Assembly (NCBI GenBank): GCA_020720785.1 | Contig: DYOA01000013.1 | Coordinates: 1 to 60,382 of the forward strand | DNA length: 60,382 nucleotides | Direction of reading: 5' to 3' | From: Leptospira biflexa | GTDB lineage: Bacteria > Spirochaetota > Leptospiria > Turneriellales > DYLW01 | Shown: piece by piece, positions 3,306-10,434 of the stretch | How positions within the stretch are numbered: the first letter of the stretch is position 1 | How the letters are laid out: every line of letters starts with the position of its first letter | Translations under genes and position numbers: made by a program | The notes under the pieces: generated by a model | What the model was told of the DNA's origin: nothing | Databases searched by the model: none | What the model saw: the letters and a program-made list of their open reading frames with translations, nothing else

Positions 3306-5387
3306 TTATTTCCTACCCATCCGGGCCACTCCCTGCCACCTATCCGAAGGCGGATGGTTTATGAGATAACGGCAGCGTTCCAGGAAAAGAATCAGAATTT
3401 TATCCTCCGGATTTTCCTCAAAAAGTCGCTGGAATATATCCAGTGCTACGGGAAAACCACCGCTTCTGTAGAGATCCAAAGCTTTTTCAAAATCCAACTT
3501 CTGGGCCATTTTCTTTTCCCGTAATTCTTCCGGATCAGAATTAAAAAGTTCATACAGAATGACAATCTTTTGTTTGCCTTTTACCTTGACACGGTCAATT
3601 TCCCGCAAATAGTATTTTTCTTTATCCAGAATTTTTTCATAGACGGTGTCAGAAAGAATCACCGGCACCTGGTAATATTTGGTGAGACTCTCAATCCGGC
3701 TGGCCAAGTTCACGGTATCCCCAATAACCGTGGTATCTATCCGCTGGGAAGAACCGACCGTACCCAGGATTAGATTTCCGGAGTGAATTCCCAGACCAAT
3801 GTCAATGGGAATATAACCGGAGTTGGACCGGTGCTCATTGTAAGTAACAAGTTTTTCTTTTATTTCCAGCGAGGCTTTAATGGCATCCTCCGGCGACTCC
3901 GGGAAAAGTGCCATAACCGCATCGCCGATGTATTTATCCACAAATCCATTATTTTCCTGGATGATGGGTTCCATCCTCTTAAAAAGGGAATTCAGGAAGA
4001 AAAAACTCTCATCGGGGGTCATGTTTTCCGACATATCTGTAAATTTTCTGATATCTGAGAATAGAACGGTCATTTCATAAGAAGCAGCATCTCCCAGACG
4101 AACATCTTCCACAGATTCCCTTTCCAGAAATTTTAGAAATTGCCGGGGAACAAATCGGGAAAAAGATTCCAGCATATTATTTTTTGTCTCCAGAAGTACT
4201 TTCTGGGCAAGCTCCTTGTCCTTCTTCAACTGGTTAATACGATCCCCCAAACCAAGGGAGAGCAGAGTTACTTCCAGAGCTACCCCAATCTGCATTCCCC
4301 ATTTGGTCAGGAAACTGTTGGGAAGAAGTCCCAGACTCTTTGCGGCAAAAATACCCGTTCCCAGAAAAGCAAATATCCAGCCAATGAAAAAATACCGTGC
4401 CGGCTTGTAACCACCCTGCAAAGATAAAATGGTGGTTATAATCATGCTCACCGGAATAATGATCCATAAAACTGTCCCCAACCGGATTGCCGGTGGATAA
4501 GAAGCCACCAAGGAAACAATCACGGAAATTCCGGAGACAAACATCAGGAATAACAGATACTTATCGGTTTTTTTCAATCGGCGGGGGGTGTCCAGAAATA
4601 TCCTGGCAAACTGGATCCCAAAAAATCCACCCATACTCATAAAAAACGGAGTGTTCTGCTTGGACCACCAATTGGAATATGGCCAGAGGTACTCAAAAGA
4701 ATAACCATTCAGAGACATCTGGACCATGGTGGCATTGATCAACCAAAAAATGTAATAAAAATAGTTAATGTCCCTGACCGACAGCAGGAGAAATAGATTG
4801 TAAAACAGCATCACCAGCATAATTCCGTAAAATACCCCCAGAAACAACTCTTCCCGAAGGACTTTTTCTATGAAACGGTTGTTGGACCAAACCTGCAGAG
4901 GAAATGTTTTAGATGTTTCCGTGGAAATACGGATGTAATACCAGTCGGCTGAGAAAGGTTTCTGCTCCAGCGGGAATAGGAAATTTCTGTAAAGAATTTC
5001 TCTCTCCCGGAAAGATTGGTATAAACCCTGGCTTTTCTTTTCGTAAGTACCATTTACCGATGGAATATAAAGATCAATTTTATCCACAAGGGAATATGAC
5101 ATCTCCAGAAAATACCGGATTTTCTGCGACCCATTGTTTTCCACCTGGAATTTCAGCCAGTATGTATGGGAATCATAACCAAAATTTGGCTCGTCCTTCA
5201 CGGAAGGGAAAAATTTTATCTTCCGCACCTCATCCAGTGTCAATGCATTGGTTTTATCCACATAGAAGAACAATTTTTTCCCGATATACTCGCCACTCAA
5301 TTCGTCCGTCAAAACAAGCGAATCCGCGTAAAGAGATCCGGATATCATAAAAAAAATTATGAACGCATTTTTATTCATTATATGCAA
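3306..5387 (-). CDS. 7TM-DISM sensor class III adenylate/guanylate cyclase
   Basis: DISMED2 (NFGY..YWL), 7 TM helices, VLFSDIRKFT, DKYIGDAVMA, VIGDTVNLASRIE, VKGK. Confidence 0.9.
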   Translation of the reverse strand: MHIMNKNAFIIFFMISGSLYADSLVLTDELSGEYIGKKLFFYVDKTNALTLDEVRKIKFFPSVKDEPNFGYDSHTYWLKFQVENNGSQKIRYFLEMSYSLVDKIDLYIPSVNGTYEKKSQGLYQSFREREILYRNFLFPLEQKPFSADWYYIRISTETSKTFPLQVWSNNRFIEKVLREELFLGVFYGIMLVMLFYNLFLLLSVRDINYFYYIFWLINATMVQMSLNGYSFEYLWPYSNWWSKQNTPFFMSMGGFFGIQFARIFLDTPRRLKKTDKYLLFLMFVSGISVIVSLVASYPPAIRLGTVLWIIIPVSMIITTILSLQGGYKPARYFFIGWIFAFLGTGIFAAKSLGLLPNSFLTKWGMQIGVALEVTLLSLGLGDRINQLKKDKELAQKVLLETKNNMLESFSRFVPRQFLKFLERESVEDVRLGDAASYEMTVLFSDIRKFTDMSENMTPDESFFFLNSLFKRMEPIIQENNGFVDKYIGDAVMALFPESPEDAIKASLEIKEKLVTYNEHRSNSGYIPIDIGLGIHSGNLILGTVGSSQRIDTTVIGDTVNLASRIESLTKYYQVPVILSDTVYEKILDKEKYYLREIDRVKVKGKQKIVILYELFNSDPEELREKKMAQKLDFEKALDLYRSGGFPVALDIFQRLFEENPEDKILILFLERCRYLINHPPSDRWQGVARMGRK

Positions 5388-5434
5388 AAAATGTATTATC
5401 CCTCCGGCGTCAATATTATAAATATGGAGGCTAT

Positions 5435-5465
5435 CCGCCGGGGGGCTGTGCTTTATGTGACATAA
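5435..5465. repeat. CCGCCGGGGG + TTATGTGACATAA palindrome (left copy of a direct repeat)
   Basis: Same two elements recur in the same orientation at 8684-8708 (CCGCCGGGGG..TTATGTCTCATAA). Confidence 0.6.
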
Positions 5466-5472
5466 TGTCTTA

Positions 5473-5506
5473 GGTGACAGACACTTATGGGAAAGTGACT
5501 GTCACC
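5473..5506. repeat. REP-like inverted doublet upstream of RAYT
   Basis: GGTGACAGACACTT-atggga-AAGTGACTGTCACC: 14-bp stem with one mismatch. Confidence 0.8.
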
Positions 5507-5705
5507 ATCCCCTTTAAATAAATTCATCAATATATTTGTCCCCGTCATGGGATTCCCACCCCCATAAACAAGGGAAAAACGCAATCCCCGAAAAAATTTT
5601 CACTTTTTATTAAATTTTATTCTAACAGTCAGCATTTTTTGCTGATTTTGAAACAAAATTTTTCATATATAATAAAATACACCAATGCACCAAAAGGAGA
5701 AATAA

Positions 5706-6461
5706 ATGGCCAGATACCCCAGAGTAAAAAATTCCAACGTGGAAGAAATATATTCCGTTTCCACCAAAGAAAATCGAAAAAATTTTATGTTCGATGTGAC
5801 CAATCCGGAAAACAACGAAAATATCTTCCTCTTTCTGGATGTCCTCAAACGGGCAAAGAAAAAGTACAAATTTATCGTCTACGGTTTTGCGATCATGAGC
5901 AACCACGTACACCTGCTGATCAAACCCCGGCTCGCATTCGGAGACATAAGTGTAATTATGCGCTACGTAAACGGGAGGTTCTCATTTGAATACAATAAAA
6001 AGCATAATAATGGCGGCGGCCACACCTGGAAAGACCGCTTCTCCAGCAAAATCCTGCGGGGTAAAAATTCCATCCGCAACATGCTGCGCTATTTTATCCT
6101 GAACCCCGTCCGGGCAGGCATCGTGGACGACCCCATGGATCACCCGTTCCACCTGGGCCACACCATCATGACCGCTAATGATAAATTACCCATTTATGGA
6201 GAAATAGTGGACTTGGCTGAAATTGAGAAAGATGTCATTGAATACCTGCAGAAAATGATCAACCAGATAAAGAAAGCAATCCTGGAAAAAACAAAAGCAA
6301 AGGCAGCCTATTTTTTAAAAATGGTCTCCGCAAAAATTCCCCGGCATAGTTTCAATTTAAGCAAAAAACGCAAAGAACAATTTTACCGTTATTTTTCAGG
6401 ACCGGTCGATGAGATCAGAGATGAAAGAAAGAAATATAATCTGAAGGATTATGACCCATGA
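5706..6461 (+). mobile_element. REP-associated tyrosine transposase (RAYT / Y1 HUH endonuclease)
   Basis: MARYPR start, MSNHVHLL (HUH), GHTWKDRFSS, RYFILNPVRAGIV (catalytic Tyr + NPVRAG); AAGGAG RBS; flanking REP-like palindromes. Confidence 0.88.
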
Positions 6462-6489
6462 TGATATATTTATCACCGGTCTTCACTAA

Positions 6490-6739
6490 AAGAAAATAAG
6501 TCTCTACGTTGCCGCCCGCTCTCCGCCTTCCGCTTGTATTAAGGCAGAGAGTCGCGGTGGCGTGGAAAGCACAATGGTAATTGTCCTTTTAGCAACGAAT
6601 GATTGGAAGGGAATTGGTCCACTTCCATATTTGTCACGGCGATTGCATATCCCGGAATTACGAGTCAAACCCAGAAAGGCAGGACCACCTGCGACTACCC
6701 GGCAAGAAACCGGCGACAGGCATAACCCGACTGTTTTTT
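6490..6739 (-). ncRNA. putative structured non-coding RNA of unknown family
   Basis: GC-rich intergenic block with at least 6 stems, directly downstream of a consensus sigma70 promoter; no credible ORF; U-rich tail after the last hairpin. Confidence 0.5.
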
Positions 6740-6745
6740 TCTATG

Positions 6746-6774
6746 ATTATAGCATATAATTTACATCCATTCAA
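6746..6774 (-). promoter_or_regulatory. sigma70 promoter with extended -10
   Basis: Minus strand TTGAAT-N17-TATAAT with TG at the extended -10 position (TGcTATAAT). Confidence 0.7.
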
Positions 6775-6862
6775 GGATAAATCCACCACTTTCCCTCATT
6801 TGGAGTACATTCCGGGAGAATGAGCAGTAAATCCAATGGAAAACCCCGGGGATTTGCCGGAG

Positions 6863-6921
6863 GGTGACAGTCACTACCGGTATGGTGACAGTCACATATG
6901 AAAAAGTGTCTGTCACCATAC
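6863..6921. repeat. REP-like cluster (3 copies) between RAYT and fbaA
   Basis: GGTGACAGTCAC at 6863 and 6884; GTGTCTGTCACC at 6906; 6880-6921 forms a 16-bp hairpin with one mismatch. Confidence 0.8.
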
Positions 6922-6989
6922 TGCAAGATGGAATTGACAATATACAACAAGGTTGAACGGTTGCCTATCACAAAATACCGGAGGAAAAA

Positions 6990-8063
6990 ATGTCAAAAAT
7001 CAATTTAAAACCAGGAATCGTAACAGGCAACCAGCTCAAAGAATTATATGATTACTGCAAAGAAACCATGTGTGCTATTCCCGCAGTCAACGTAATCGGA
7101 TCCAGCACCATCAACGCCGCAATGCAGGCAGCGAAGGAGATGTCTTCCCCCATCATTATCCAGTTTTCTAATGGGGGAGCACATTTCAACGCGGGGAAAT
7201 TTCTGGATAATACCGACCAGAGAGCTACCATTGCCGGAGCGGTGGCTGGAGCACTCCATATCCGCCACATCGCCCCGGTGTACGGAGTGCCAGTCATCCT
7301 GCATACGGACCACGCGGCAAAAAAACTGCTGCCCTGGATAGATGGTCTTTTAGACGCTGGAGAAGATTTTTTCCGTAAAAACGGAGAACCCCTGTACAGC
7401 TCCCACATGCTGGATCTGTCCGAAGAACCTCTGAAAGAAAACCTGGAGATTTCCGCCCGGTATCTGGAGCGGATGAATAAAATCATGATGAGCCTGGAAA
7501 TTGAACTGGGAGTGACAGGCGGGGAAGAAGACGGAGTGGACAATACGGGGATAGATAACGCAAAGTTATACACCCAACCCGACGATGTGTTGAAAGCTTA
7601 CGATAAATTAAAACCCATCGGCCATTTTACCGTCGCGGCATCCTTTGGAAATACCCATGGCGTATACAAACCTGGCAATGTCAAACTAACCCCGCCGATT
7701 TTAAAAAACAGCCAGGATAAAATCCAAAGCGTCCGAAATACCGGGATCAAACCCGTCGATCTGGTATTCCATGGCGGCTCCGGATCCAGCCTGGATGAAA
7801 TCCGGGAAGCTGTATCCTACGGAGTTGTAAAAATGAATATCGATACAGACACGCAGTGGGCATTCACTCAGCCCATCAAGGCCTATATGGATGAAAAAGA
7901 CGGGTATCTGCACGCACAGATTGGCAATCCGGAAGGAGAAGACAAACCCAATAAAAAATACATCGATCCGCGTGCATGGACAAATCTGGGCGAAAAAGGC
8001 ATGGTCCAGAGACTTCGCCGGGCATTTGAGGATTTGAACGCACCGGAAAAATTCACGTTCTGA
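6990..8063 (+). CDS. fbaA: fructose-bisphosphate aldolase class II
   Basis: PAVNV, LHTDH, SSHMLDLSEE, ELGVTGGEEDG, FGNTHGVYKPG, VFHGGSGS, KMNIDTD; GGAGG RBS. Confidence 0.97.
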   Translation: MSKINLKPGIVTGNQLKELYDYCKETMCAIPAVNVIGSSTINAAMQAAKEMSSPIIIQFSNGGAHFNAGKFLDNTDQRATIAGAVAGALHIRHIAPVYGVPVILHTDHAAKKLLPWIDGLLDAGEDFFRKNGEPLYSSHMLDLSEEPLKENLEISARYLERMNKIMMSLEIELGVTGGEEDGVDNTGIDNAKLYTQPDDVLKAYDKLKPIGHFTVAASFGNTHGVYKPGNVKLTPPILKNSQDKIQSVRNTGIKPVDLVFHGGSGSSLDEIREAVSYGVVKMNIDTDTQWAFTQPIKAYMDEKDGYLHAQIGNPEGEDKPNKKYIDPRAWTNLGEKGMVQRLRRAFEDLNAPEKFTF

Positions 8064-8680
8064 TGTTTCCTTTTTCCAGAGATGAAAAAAGCCGGGTGCG
8101 GTTCATGTTTAACACTATCGCACCCGTGTATTCCTGGTTTGATGAAGGAGTCCGGAATAACTTTGAAAAGGGTTTCCGCCTCCTCCAGGAAAAGGTGACA
8201 GTCACCGGCATGACAGTTCTGGACATTGGGTGCGGAACCGGGGCTTGGGCCTACCATTTTATGAAATCCGGAGCCCATGTGACCGGAGTGGACATTTCTG
8301 ATGGAATGCTCCGGTATGCCCGGAATCGTTATTCAGAAAAAATGGAATGCATATACGAGGATATTCTGGATGAGCAATCCACTATTGCCGGGAAGAAGTT
8401 CGATATTGTTACCGCATCTTATGTTCTCCATGGGATGAAACGTCCGGAGCGGATGGCCATGCTGAAAAGGATGAAATCCCTGGCCAGAAAAGCGGTGGTT
8501 ATCCATGACTATGGCCCGGATTTTGCCGGGGTAATCATGTATCTGCTGGAAAAGGCAGAGCGGTCCGATTACTGTGTTTTCCGGAGAGAATTCCCCAAGG
8601 AATTTGGGTCCACGTTTTCCCAAACTTCGATTTTACACCCCCGTAAGTCCAACGCTGTGTACTACGCTCTTCTGGATTGA
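8063..8680 (+). CDS. class I SAM-dependent methyltransferase
   Basis: VLDIGCGTG, GVDIS, FDIVTASYVLH; start overlaps fbaA stop (TGATG). Confidence 0.88.
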   Translation: MFPFSRDEKSRVRFMFNTIAPVYSWFDEGVRNNFEKGFRLLQEKVTVTGMTVLDIGCGTGAWAYHFMKSGAHVTGVDISDGMLRYARNRYSEKMECIYEDILDEQSTIAGKKFDIVTASYVLHGMKRPERMAMLKRMKSLARKAVVIHDYGPDFAGVIMYLLEKAERSDYCVFRREFPKEFGSTFSQTSILHPRKSNAVYYALLD

Positions 8681-8683
8681 CCG

Positions 8684-8749
8684 CCGCCGGGGGAATTATG
8701 TCTCATAAGTCCATAAGTGACTGTCACCATATTAAAAGTGTCTGTCACC
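8684..8749. repeat. right direct-repeat copy plus two tandem REP-like motifs
   Basis: CCGCCGGGGG-aa-TTATGTCTCATAA followed by AAGTGACTGTCACC (8715) and AAGTGTCTGTCACC (8736). Confidence 0.75.
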
Positions 8750-8756
8750 CATGCCC

Positions 8757-8790
8757 AAAAAAAGCCCCATAAATCGGGGCTTCTCTCTTC
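8757..8790. terminator. probable bidirectional intrinsic terminator
   Basis: A-tract, AAGCCCC-7nt-GGGGCTT, then pyrimidine tract, between convergent genes. Confidence 0.65.
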
Positions 8791-8808
8791 TCCGGCCCTG
8801 GGGGGATT

Positions 8809-10434
8809 TCAGTTCTTCTTTTTTGCTTCGTCCGCTTTGTTGGTTTCTTCGATCATTTTTACACGGGAGGATTTATCTTCGGTGGCGGTGCCTTCTTCTC
8901 CCGCTTTTACGGCTCCAAAGAGGTAGTATGCGGTGAGGCTCACGCCTTTGAATCCTGTTTCATCGTCCTTGTTGAAGAGCAGGTTGATGCGGAAATTCTT
9001 ATCCGGCTTATACTGGAATCCCAGGCCATAGTCTTCCAGAGAGGACACAAGGGTGGAGGGAGTTTCGCTGGTGGTATTGGTGTTGGTTGCTCCGCTTCCG
9101 GAAACCGGTTCTGTTTTTTCAATTCTCCGGTCGTGGATGGAGTACTTCAGTTTGGGGTATGTACCGGCGAATAAATCCAGTTGGGGATGGACGGCAATCT
9201 GGAATACCAGCGGTAGACCGGCGGCCACGGCATAGTTCTGGAATTTGATGGTGGATTTATTTCCGGTATCCGGTGTGCGCACCCATTCTGTATGGTTCAC
9301 AATAGCTCCCAGTTCCGGGGTCACATAGAAGAATCCGCTTTTGCCCACTTTAAAGGCCTGGGTGGAGAAGATGTAGAGATTCCCGTCTTCCACTCCGGTG
9401 TAGGTGTTTTTGGTGACTTCCTTACTTCCTACGGGAGTAACAACTACACAGCCACTTCCTTGGTCCTCTGAACAGTTCCGCTGAAAAAGTTGATCATATG
9501 AATAATCCGTGGTTCCCAATGGAATTTTGGCCCCGCCATACCAGCCCACATTATCCCCGCTGCCATACTGCATCCAGCCAATGGTCTGGGCATTCAGATA
9601 CATCACTCCGGAGGGTTTATCGCCCACAGCCTGCGGGGATTTGAGGGCATTGCCATCCGCATCGGTGGGGTAGGATATTTCGCTACCTCCCAGACTGGCC
9701 GGTAAAATCATAGGAATTGGGGCGTATTTCCCGGCATTGTTAATAATCCGATGGGACCCACCGTGTATTTTTACTGTCATTTCATTTTCGCCGCCTTCCA
9801 CCAGATAGGCCAGACCCATGGAAGCCACCAGCCGGCCAAACTGCCCGCCGGCGTTGATTCCAATCTGGGTGATATCATCCGGGTTGTGGTAGTCATACTC
9901 AAAGCTGGATATTTGCCCATCGCCCGCATTGGGGTTGGTATAGGAAAAATGGTTATATTTCAGATTACTGGCTTCGTCCGGAGCCATACGGTTCATCTGG
10001 GTAAAAATCCCCACGCCCAAGCTTTCGCCCACCAGAACGCCCACGGAGGCCCGCAGGTGCATGTCTTCAATGATCTGTTTTTTGGTTTCCGATGTGGTAT
10101 TGGAATTTTCTTTCTGGGTGGGATTGTTTTTATAGGATACCGCAGTGTAAATGGGCAGACCCAGAGTGAACCTTCCTCCCAGAAGGATGGTATTTTTCTC
10201 TCCGGTAAAATTGGTGTAACCGGCCTCCAGGGAGTCATTTTTTGCCTGGGAATAATACGCAGGGGCAATGAGGTAATCCCAGTTGTCAAAGGTGATATCA
10301 TAGCTCACCCCGGCCTGGTTGGGAATGGACTTCTCAAAAATGGAAATATAGGACCAGAGGAAATTTCCGCTTCCTGCGAATACAGCCAGTGCGATCACCC
10401 ATTGGCCGGATTTTTTTACAATATTTTGCAGCAT
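8809..10434 (-). CDS. exported, probably outer-membrane beta-rich protein of unknown function
   Basis: N-terminal signal-like segment; alternating aromatic/Gly strands (YGLGFQY, VSLTAYYLF); charged C-terminal tail; GGAGAG RBS. Confidence 0.6.
   Translation of the reverse strand: MLQNIVKKSGQWVIALAVFAGSGNFLWSYISIFEKSIPNQAGVSYDITFDNWDYLIAPAYYSQAKNDSLEAGYTNFTGEKNTILLGGRFTLGLPIYTAVSYKNNPTQKENSNTTSETKKQIIEDMHLRASVGVLVGESLGVGIFTQMNRMAPDEASNLKYNHFSYTNPNAGDGQISSFEYDYHNPDDITQIGINAGGQFGRLVASMGLAYLVEGGENEMTVKIHGGSHRIINNAGKYAPIPMILPASLGGSEISYPTDADGNALKSPQAVGDKPSGVMYLNAQTIGWMQYGSGDNVGWYGGAKIPLGTTDYSYDQLFQRNCSEDQGSGCVVVTPVGSKEVTKNTYTGVEDGNLYIFSTQAFKVGKSGFFYVTPELGAIVNHTEWVRTPDTGNKSTIKFQNYAVAAGLPLVFQIAVHPQLDLFAGTYPKLKYSIHDRRIEKTEPVSGSGATNTNTTSETPSTLVSSLEDYGLGFQYKPDKNFRINLLFNKDDETGFKGVSLTAYYLFGAVKAGEEGTATEDKSSRVKMIEETNKADEAKKKN

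Follow-up and report, generated by a model that had tools for sequence, protein, structure and literature searches.

A REP-bounded RAYT-like cassette with filled and empty sites in one genus and an inward-facing promoter-like site beyond its Y1 gene

Transposition by Y1 enzymes proceeds via single-stranded DNA, and the enzymes of the RAYT and IS200/IS605 kind recognise DNA hairpins without RNA, as is the case for IS200/IS605 and TnpA-REP. RAYTs are described as single-copy genes that are mostly inherited vertically (10.1101/2022.05.22.493013). Regarding small RNAs of such elements, the antisense RNA art200 of IS200 is described as opposing the 5' UTR of tnpA (PMC4513863, PMC5435999), and in ISPpu9 the RNA Ssr9 is described as acting by pairing with Asr9, the 5' antisense RNA (PMC8450116). 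Among the papers listed for RAYT, REPIN and non-coding or antisense RNA, no title or abstract describes an RNA that is dedicated to a RAYT.

The window, meaning the whole stretch of 60,382 nucleotides (nt) that was analysed, is one contig (C68) of a genome of 2.59 Mb in 103 contigs. In it, a cassette of 1.48 kb separates the gene of a 7TMR-DISM adenylate cyclase (3306-5387, minus strand) from that of a class II fructose-bisphosphate aldolase (6990-8063, plus strand); the cassette is composed of a REP block, a RAYT gene, a 3' non-coding module and a second REP block. A paralogous cassette with the identical order of parts is present on contig C70 of the same genome. The features of the window's cassette, with identities to the C70 cassette, are as follows.

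5448..6925, no strand: whole cassette (left REP block, RAYT gene, 3' non-coding module, right REP block)
5448..5508, no strand: left REP block, a TTATGTGACATAATG box followed by a hairpin of inverted 12-mers (5473-5484 and 5495-5506); 84% identical to C70
5509..5705, plus strand: A/T-rich 5' non-coding region, the presumed promoter and leader of the RAYT gene; 62% identical to C70
5706..6461, plus strand: RAYT-like Y1/HUH nuclease gene, 251 aa, assigned by Pfam, NCBIfam and structure match
6344..6461, plus strand: terminal 118 nt of the RAYT gene; 100% identical to C70
6448..6476, minus strand: weak antisense promoter-like site over the RAYT stop codon; 9/12 matches
6462..6718, minus strand: body of the candidate RNA, non-coding, 49% G+C; the least conserved module of the cassette
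6511..6561, minus strand: long G+C-rich hairpin near the 3' end of the candidate RNA, non-canonical as a terminator; core of 7 consensus pairs
6719..6860, no strand: distal 3' non-coding region, which bears the promoter; 57% identical to C70 (MAFFT alignment)
6746..6774, minus strand: strong sigma-70-like promoter facing inward, TTGAAT-17-TG-n-TATAAT; consensus match 10/12 plus extended TG
6861..6921, no strand: right REP block, a 12-mer (6863-6874) and a hairpin (6884-6895 / 6906-6917); 70% identical to C70

The 251-aa protein matches Pfam Y1_Tnp over residues 43-129 (E 2.3e-10), and its best NCBIfam model is REP_Tyr_transpos (NF047646), at 72.7 bits, just under the curated cut-off of 80; on transpos_IS200 it scores 21.1 bits against a cut-off of 55. 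The sole solved relative is E. coli TnpA-REP (4er8, E 2.4e-6), and a C-terminal extension of about 100 aa beyond the 4er8-like part is without a match. H67-V-H69 forms the HUH motif and Y129 is the conserved tyrosine; H67, H69, Y129 and N133 do not vary among 32 aligned sequences, and the Y1 fold with HUH and catalytic tyrosine that is expected of a RAYT is present. A first reading made from the sequence only had placed a Y1 HUH gene between two palindromic clusters, and both the Pfam match and the REP sites on the two sides agree with it, as does the lack of any TnpB-type gene near the locus or in the genome (PF07282, 0 matches; controls were positive in 8 of 14 genomes). Three Y1 genes were identified in the genome: that of the window, the C70 copy at 86% amino acid identity and one at 36%, which scores 80.6 bits on NF047646. 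The protein sequences of relatives (P0003-P0005) are 54-57% identical. A scan of genome contigs for further cassettes gave three distant or truncated loci, and a scan of metagenomes gave 28 loci, each at 35% identity or less at full length. One contig from another sample matches 6344-6461 and then carries on as the C70 copy. The 5' non-coding region of the C70 copy includes a 32-nt A/T-rich block that is 94% identical to the third paralogue.

The palindromes around the gene are a REP family with its RAYT-type gene. The motif GGTGACAGWCAC, with at most one mismatch, has 11 sites in the window against 0.14 expected, a number reached by 0 of 100 shuffles. Two of the sites lie to the left of the gene (5473 and 5495) and three to its right (6863, 6884 and 6906), and on either side an inverted pair of copies makes a ~34-nt hairpin (5473-5506 and 6884-6917). 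The 13-mer palindrome GGTGACWGTCACC occurs in 53 exact copies on 28 contigs of the genome, against 0.055 expected, and with one mismatch there are 414 sites in 226 clusters genome-wide. Taking open frames of at least 150 aa as a crude proxy for coding sequence, 60% of the 53 copies are inside such frames, vs 93% of the genome, and 40% are outside them, vs 7% of the genome; six of the 53 are within 60 nt of a contig end. REP sequences on both flanks, and genome-wide dispersal mainly outside genes, are expected of a RAYT and are found here, the latter as this excess outside long frames. The first 21-nt unit of the right REP block is absent in contigs from two other samples. At the C70 locus the right REP is followed by a left-type REP. 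The counterpart of that locus in the sister species G001, beside a pheS-like gene, is cut off by a contig break at a REP hairpin. A joint that goes back 1469, seen in contigs from other DNA samples, is best explained by the C70 locus.

G001 belongs to the same genus, and in it the cyclase gene is the direct neighbour of the aldolase gene, with an intergenic region of 165 nt between them from which the cassette is absent. Its alignment to the window extends up to ~5447 and resumes at ~6930, which places the insertion in the window's genome at ~5448 to ~6925. The homology between C68 and C70 begins at ~5449 and stops at ~6921. From the empty site and the matching limits of homology it follows that the cassette, including its 3' module, moved as one piece; as judged by these alignments, 5448-6925 is a single mobile unit, a result that is new here. 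The sequence-only reading had treated REP, RAYT, spacer and REP as one unit, and as a physical unit it is confirmed by the empty site and by the C70 cassette with the same order of parts. The mobility of the cassette departs from the usual view of RAYTs as fixed single-copy genes: there are three Y1 genes instead of one, and vertical inheritance does not hold at a syntenic site that is empty in G001. A discrete element with subterminal hairpins and with filled and empty sites is, on the other hand, what IS200/IS605 would present. The REP–RAYT gene thus behaves like a self-contained mobile cassette, its site being filled in one species of the genus and empty in another, and this pattern bears on the question debated for RAYTs, namely whether they are insertion sequences or fixed genes of the host.

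The modules of the cassette differ widely in conservation. Between C68 and C70 the coding sequence is 81% identical and the body of the candidate RNA 41%, while the two flanks, both unrelated, are at 41% (left) and 25%. Since 41% is the level of the unrelated left flank, the similarity of the bodies does not exceed that of unrelated DNA. Aligned globally, they nevertheless score above shuffles (z 4.3), the ungapped identity is 36% at offset 0 vs about 26% at other offsets, and the lengths are nearly equal (257 and 259 nt in C68 and C70, respectively). Third codon positions differ at 37% of sites, and the body has diverged more. A more distant gene, in G001, is 57% identical and also inside a REP-flanked unit; its spacer of 390 nt is unalignable with those of C68 and C70 (z -1.0 and -0.7) and unstructured (z -0.13). 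The metagenomic homologue L013, at 35% identity, is without a spacer, its REPs being tight on the gene, with palindromes 14 nt before the start codon and over the stop codon.

Searches with the candidate RNA stretch gave a similar picture. By blastn it is single-copy in its own genome, was not found in 40 relatives and had no match in the plasmid collection. In 400 genomes of the phylum only the -10 region was matched, three times and over 23-37 nt; these matches were rejected as chance, two of them by their place in seemingly unrelated A/T-rich sequence and the third by score alone. The spacers have no second copy elsewhere in the genome. A covariance model of the stretch (R1) found only itself in its own genome and across 41 genomes of relatives, and its best score among 12 homologous loci was 7.6 bits (E 0.19). 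Contigs of two DNA runs span 6500-6976 and show 2 substitutions and one deletion of 21 nt there, which is not enough variation to analyse covariation, and the contigs of two cave DNA runs leave the body uncovered. The conserved structure that had been anticipated downstream of homologues is therefore largely missing, given R1 scores of at most 7.6 bits, an unalignable spacer in G001 and none in L013.

The site at 6774..6746 would start the candidate RNA near 6739. Sites of equal quality number 41 in the 2.59-Mb genome, both strands counted (~1 per 63 kb), and the strong minus-strand promoter proposed earlier within the REP clusters holds as a rare consensus match. By blastn, C68 and C70 are 66.5% identical over 206 nt, from the distal 3' region into the right REP block. 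The counterpart hexamers in C70, TTTACA and TAAAAT, are 15 nt apart, a poor spacing, and are not among the called C70 sites. The weaker site over the stop codon has an antisense promoter-like counterpart of 10/12 at the same position in C70, and in G001 an antisense-facing promoter-like site of 11/12 with TG is inside the 3' end of the gene. Antisense-facing promoter-like sites recur at RAYT 3' ends in three cassettes (9/12, 10/12 and 11/12). No antisense promoter was found at the third paralogue in the 175 nt before the contig end, and no 5' antisense promoter was prominent in the promoter scan of the window locus. A promoter opposing the transposase gene, as would be expected of a cis-antisense regulator, is present here as a consensus match.

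Regarding the nature of the stretch itself, hidden coding was rejected (none of its four ORFs matches Pfam at E<=1), and no ORF is common to the paralogue cassette. A shared peptide was also rejected, as the six-frame peptides of the three spacers are common only at the REP-encoded ends. ARAGORN detected no tRNA or tmRNA in it, and an Rfam scan of 4000-9500 at E<=1 returned nothing in 6462-6745, so the alternative of a known Rfam RNA receives no support. Of the earlier claim of a structured, non-coding segment of ~250 nt that ends just short of the RAYT stop, the non-coding part stood. As to structure, the minus strand has a predicted fold of -94.1 kcal/mol (z -2.84; none of 200 shuffles is as stable), but the plus strand does about equally well (z -2.74, 3 of 200), and the GC-corrected rank of the fold is in the top 3.8% vs 600 random genomic windows. 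The body of C70 is not unusually stable (z -1.29). As to the end, the stretch does finish beside the stop codon, but the terminator scan called none there. The core helix of the hairpin at 6511-6561 has a mean pair probability of 0.997 in C68, and a gap of ~11 nt separates this hairpin from a U-rich tract; with no terminator called and the U-rich tract late, read-through into the RAYT gene is possible. An ISPpu9-like mode of pairing, between the candidate RNA and the RAYT 5' leader, was considered and rejected, since it did not exceed shuffles (z +0.4 and +1.6).

The minus-strand-specific consensus fold of the C68 and C70 bodies is the one result that favours an RNA partner of the enzyme. In a MAFFT alignment of two sequences only, at 41% identity and thus unreliable, RNAalifold predicted a structure of -32.2 kcal/mol with 46 pairs, in which a closing helix of 13 pairs, five of them with substitutions on both sides, connects the 5' part with the last bases ahead of the RAYT stop. 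Compared with column shuffles the minus strand has z ~-4, none of 150 being as low, and the plus strand z +0.5, and of 240 alignments of either body to random GC-matched windows none was as low. Pairs changed on both sides number 14 in all, a count matched or exceeded in 26 of 150 shuffles. The consensus energy is ~37% of the single-sequence mean (-32.2 vs -87.3 kcal/mol), the consensus helices have a mean pair probability of at most 0.008 in the C70 ensemble, and alignments guided by pairing profiles became worse, not better (-10 to -14 kcal/mol, the null level). We read this signal as a few common local hairpins and not as a conserved architecture.

Our preferred reading, to which we give about even odds, is that of an IS200-like REP–RAYT cassette in which the inward promoter, if active, would produce a convergent or antisense transcript that damps the RAYT. 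From its family membership, the Y1/HUH enzyme would act in the way of E. coli TnpA-REP, presumably binding the REP hairpins on either side in single-stranded form and cutting them. The 3' non-coding module would be a fast-evolving spacer within the cassette, with a predicted strong inward promoter in its outer part. If this promoter fires, a lineage-specific RNA of ~255-270 nt, convergent to the RAYT gene, could be made, and without a clear terminator the transcript would possibly run into the gene. The most likely role of such a transcript would be that of a cis brake on the RAYT, by transcriptional interference or by 3' antisense pairing. The antisense form of this reading needs the missing terminator, as the body otherwise has no overlap with the coding sequence. 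Counted against damping are the third paralogue, without a site in its 175 nt, the spacing of the hexamers in C70, the consensus fold, which hints that the body is more than a spacer, and the near-equal lengths of the bodies.

The simplest competitor of this reading is that there is no functional RNA at all, the 3' module being a decaying or neutral spacer and the promoter-like site vestigial or fortuitous in A/T-rich sequence. We regard this as quite possible, though we do not expect it. The body is the least conserved part, no closer between paralogues than the non-homologous left flank; the G001 spacer is unrelated and unstructured and L013 has none; and the fold is alike on both strands, stands in the top 3.8% only, is unremarkable in C70 and has consensus helices that are nearly absent from the C70 ensemble and lost when the alignment is guided by pairing profiles. 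All of this would suit a spacer, but a promoter of 10/12 with TG is rare, bacteria seldom retain 400 nt of useless DNA in three cassettes, the length of the body has been kept, and the consensus fold from MAFFT beats both controls on the minus strand only. The module could instead act on the plus strand or as DNA, either as a long RAYT 3' UTR reaching to the T-run at 6735-6741 or as single-stranded hairpins in Y1 transposition, which uses single-stranded DNA. In favour of this, folding stability is similar on the two strands, the scan calls no terminator from the stop codon to the T-run, and C70 retains the T-run; we nevertheless think such a role unlikely, as neither copy has a good hairpin ahead of the T-run, the consensus fold on the plus strand stays at the null level and the sequence lacks conservation.

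We consider it highly improbable that the Y1 enzyme has a dedicated structured RNA partner (a cofactor, guide, substrate mimic or specificity determinant) that co-evolves with each paralogue. In line with such a partner are the promoter, the place of the stretch within the mobile unit, the equal lengths of the bodies in two paralogues, the strand-specific fold with its closing helix and five two-sided pair changes, and a divergence of the body beyond that of third codon positions. The fold, however, comes from two sequences, its count of 14 'compensatory' pairs is reached by 26 of 150 shuffles, its energy is about a third of the single-sequence energies and it is not predicted in C70. In addition, the cassettes of G001 and L013 hold no match, pairing with the RAYT 5' leader is not in excess, and enzymes of the RAYT family recognise their DNA hairpins without RNA. 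A more specific version, in which the ~260-nt convergent RNA of each cassette would be a paralogue-specific partner whose sequence changes faster than synonymous sites while length, promoter position and closing helix are kept, also seems very unlikely to us; if true, the RNA would set Y1 activity or specificity and would be the first RNA component to be described for a TnpB-less Y1 system. A role of the candidate RNA as a conserved cofactor or guide is likewise unlikely on the comparisons made here. The sequence-only reading had offered the RNA as a dedicated cofactor, guide or substrate mimic, a proposal that is not supported by a body 41% identical between paralogues and found by R1 only as itself, and the comparative data available so far do not bear out the specific proposal of an RNA-associated Y1 system.

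Among known systems, the omega RNAs of TnpB and IscB in IS200/IS605 share with the candidate the place of a non-coding RNA at the right end of a Y1 element. Unlike them, it has no RNA-guided nuclease gene beside it, TnpB and IscB being absent from the locus and the genome; it is on the strand that runs away from the right end, and it has no Rfam match. The REP/RAYT systems, namely E. coli TnpA-REP (4er8) and the REPIN–RAYT of Pseudomonas, are closer: the locus has in common with them HUH and tyrosine, REP on both flanks and dispersed in the genome, and REP_Tyr_transpos as its best family match. It differs in a C-terminus ~100 aa longer than the 165-residue chain of 4er8, in two close copies and one distant copy where one is expected, in the absence of the cassette at the syntenic site of G001, in only 53 exact REP cores and in a 3' non-coding module of ~400 nt. 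With the IS200 group of IS200/IS605, which has TnpA only, it shares a Y1 transposase, subterminal hairpins, the lack of TnpB, and empty and filled sites. In contrast to that group, it scores low on transpos_IS200 (21.1 bits vs 55), its end hairpins are the REP of the genome, and instead of several near-identical copies there are two old ones (86% amino acid identity) and one at 36%.

As for the known regulators of such elements, ISPpu9 also has a transposase gene within REPs, and its element-encoded small RNAs Asr9 and Ssr9, one of them downstream of tnp as the source outlines, are comparable to the candidate; no counterpart of the Ssr9–Asr9 pairing, as set out there, was detected in our locus. 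IS200, with its antisense small RNA art200 and the 5' tnpA RNA, offers the other parallel, a Y1 element with its own opposed small RNA that restrains the transposase, which the RNA of the present cassette would be. The arrangement differs, as here the promoter is located past the 3' end, gene and RNA body have no overlap and there is no excess of pairing with the 5' leader. If the inward promoter is active, the cassette would represent a simple self-restraint of a domesticated or semi-mobile Y1 element via convergent transcription, and this, if true, would add to what is known from IS200 and ISPpu9.

The RAYT genes of the C68 cassette and of its paralogue in the C70 copy are 100% identical over their final 118 nucleotides (nt) (window 6344-6461 and L003 2139-2256, respectively), and the identity block ends exactly at the stop codon. 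In the rest of the gene, 37% of the third codon positions differ between the two copies, and an identity of 118 nt at the same divergence rate has a probability of approximately 1e-8. The identical segment was produced either by gene conversion or by selection at the nucleotide level, for instance on an overlapping antisense promoter or RNA. The following sites were also identified:

L009 1493-1522 (G001:C10, sister species), antisense to the gene: near-consensus promoter (TTGCCA, 18 nt, TATAAT with TG; 11/12 matches)
Window 6844-6862, minus strand: terminator-like hairpin with a T-run, directly upstream of the inward promoter

The predicted L009 promoter lies inside the 3' end of a RAYT homologue from the same genus and reads antisense into the gene. 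The hairpin at 6844-6862 could shield the inward promoter, which faces the RAYT 3' end, from read-through on the aldolase side; no obvious conservation of this hairpin was found in C70.

The C70 copy (L003 1386-1417) and a distant third paralogue (G000:C16 37234-37265) share, at 94% identity, an A/T-rich block upstream of the RAYT start. It is about 32 nt long, consists of an A-run, TCGCA and a T-run, and may serve both genes as an operator or promoter element. This third Y1 paralogue (L004, G000:C16 37187-38259) has 36% identity and an orthologue in the sister species (L011, G001:C63). A variant REP, composed of the palindrome and then ACATTATGTCGC, is found ahead of the L004 gene, and assembly gaps or contig ends adjoin both loci.

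In the whole genome, the 13-mer palindrome GGTGACWGTCACC has 53 exact copies against 0.055 expected, a strong excess, and allowing one mismatch gives 414 sites in 226 clusters. The longer form ATGGTGAC...GTCACCAT is frequent around it, and part of the copies fall within long open frames. Because six of the 53 exact copies are at contig ends, the palindrome is probably a cause of assembly breaks. Further sites in the window are:

8194: palindrome
8716-8749: palindrome
11320: palindrome
42364: palindrome

In C70, a left-type REP block standing on its own (TTATGTGACATAATG box and hairpin) occupies L003 2858-2912, approximately 140 nt past the cassette's right REP, and best explains the joint at which contigs aligned to the window go back. 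Regarding the right REP block of the C68 cassette, one unit of 21 nt (window 6863-6883) is missing in contigs from two other metagenome runs, which otherwise match 6500-6976 with two substitutions; its presence or absence is a REP copy-number polymorphism between populations.
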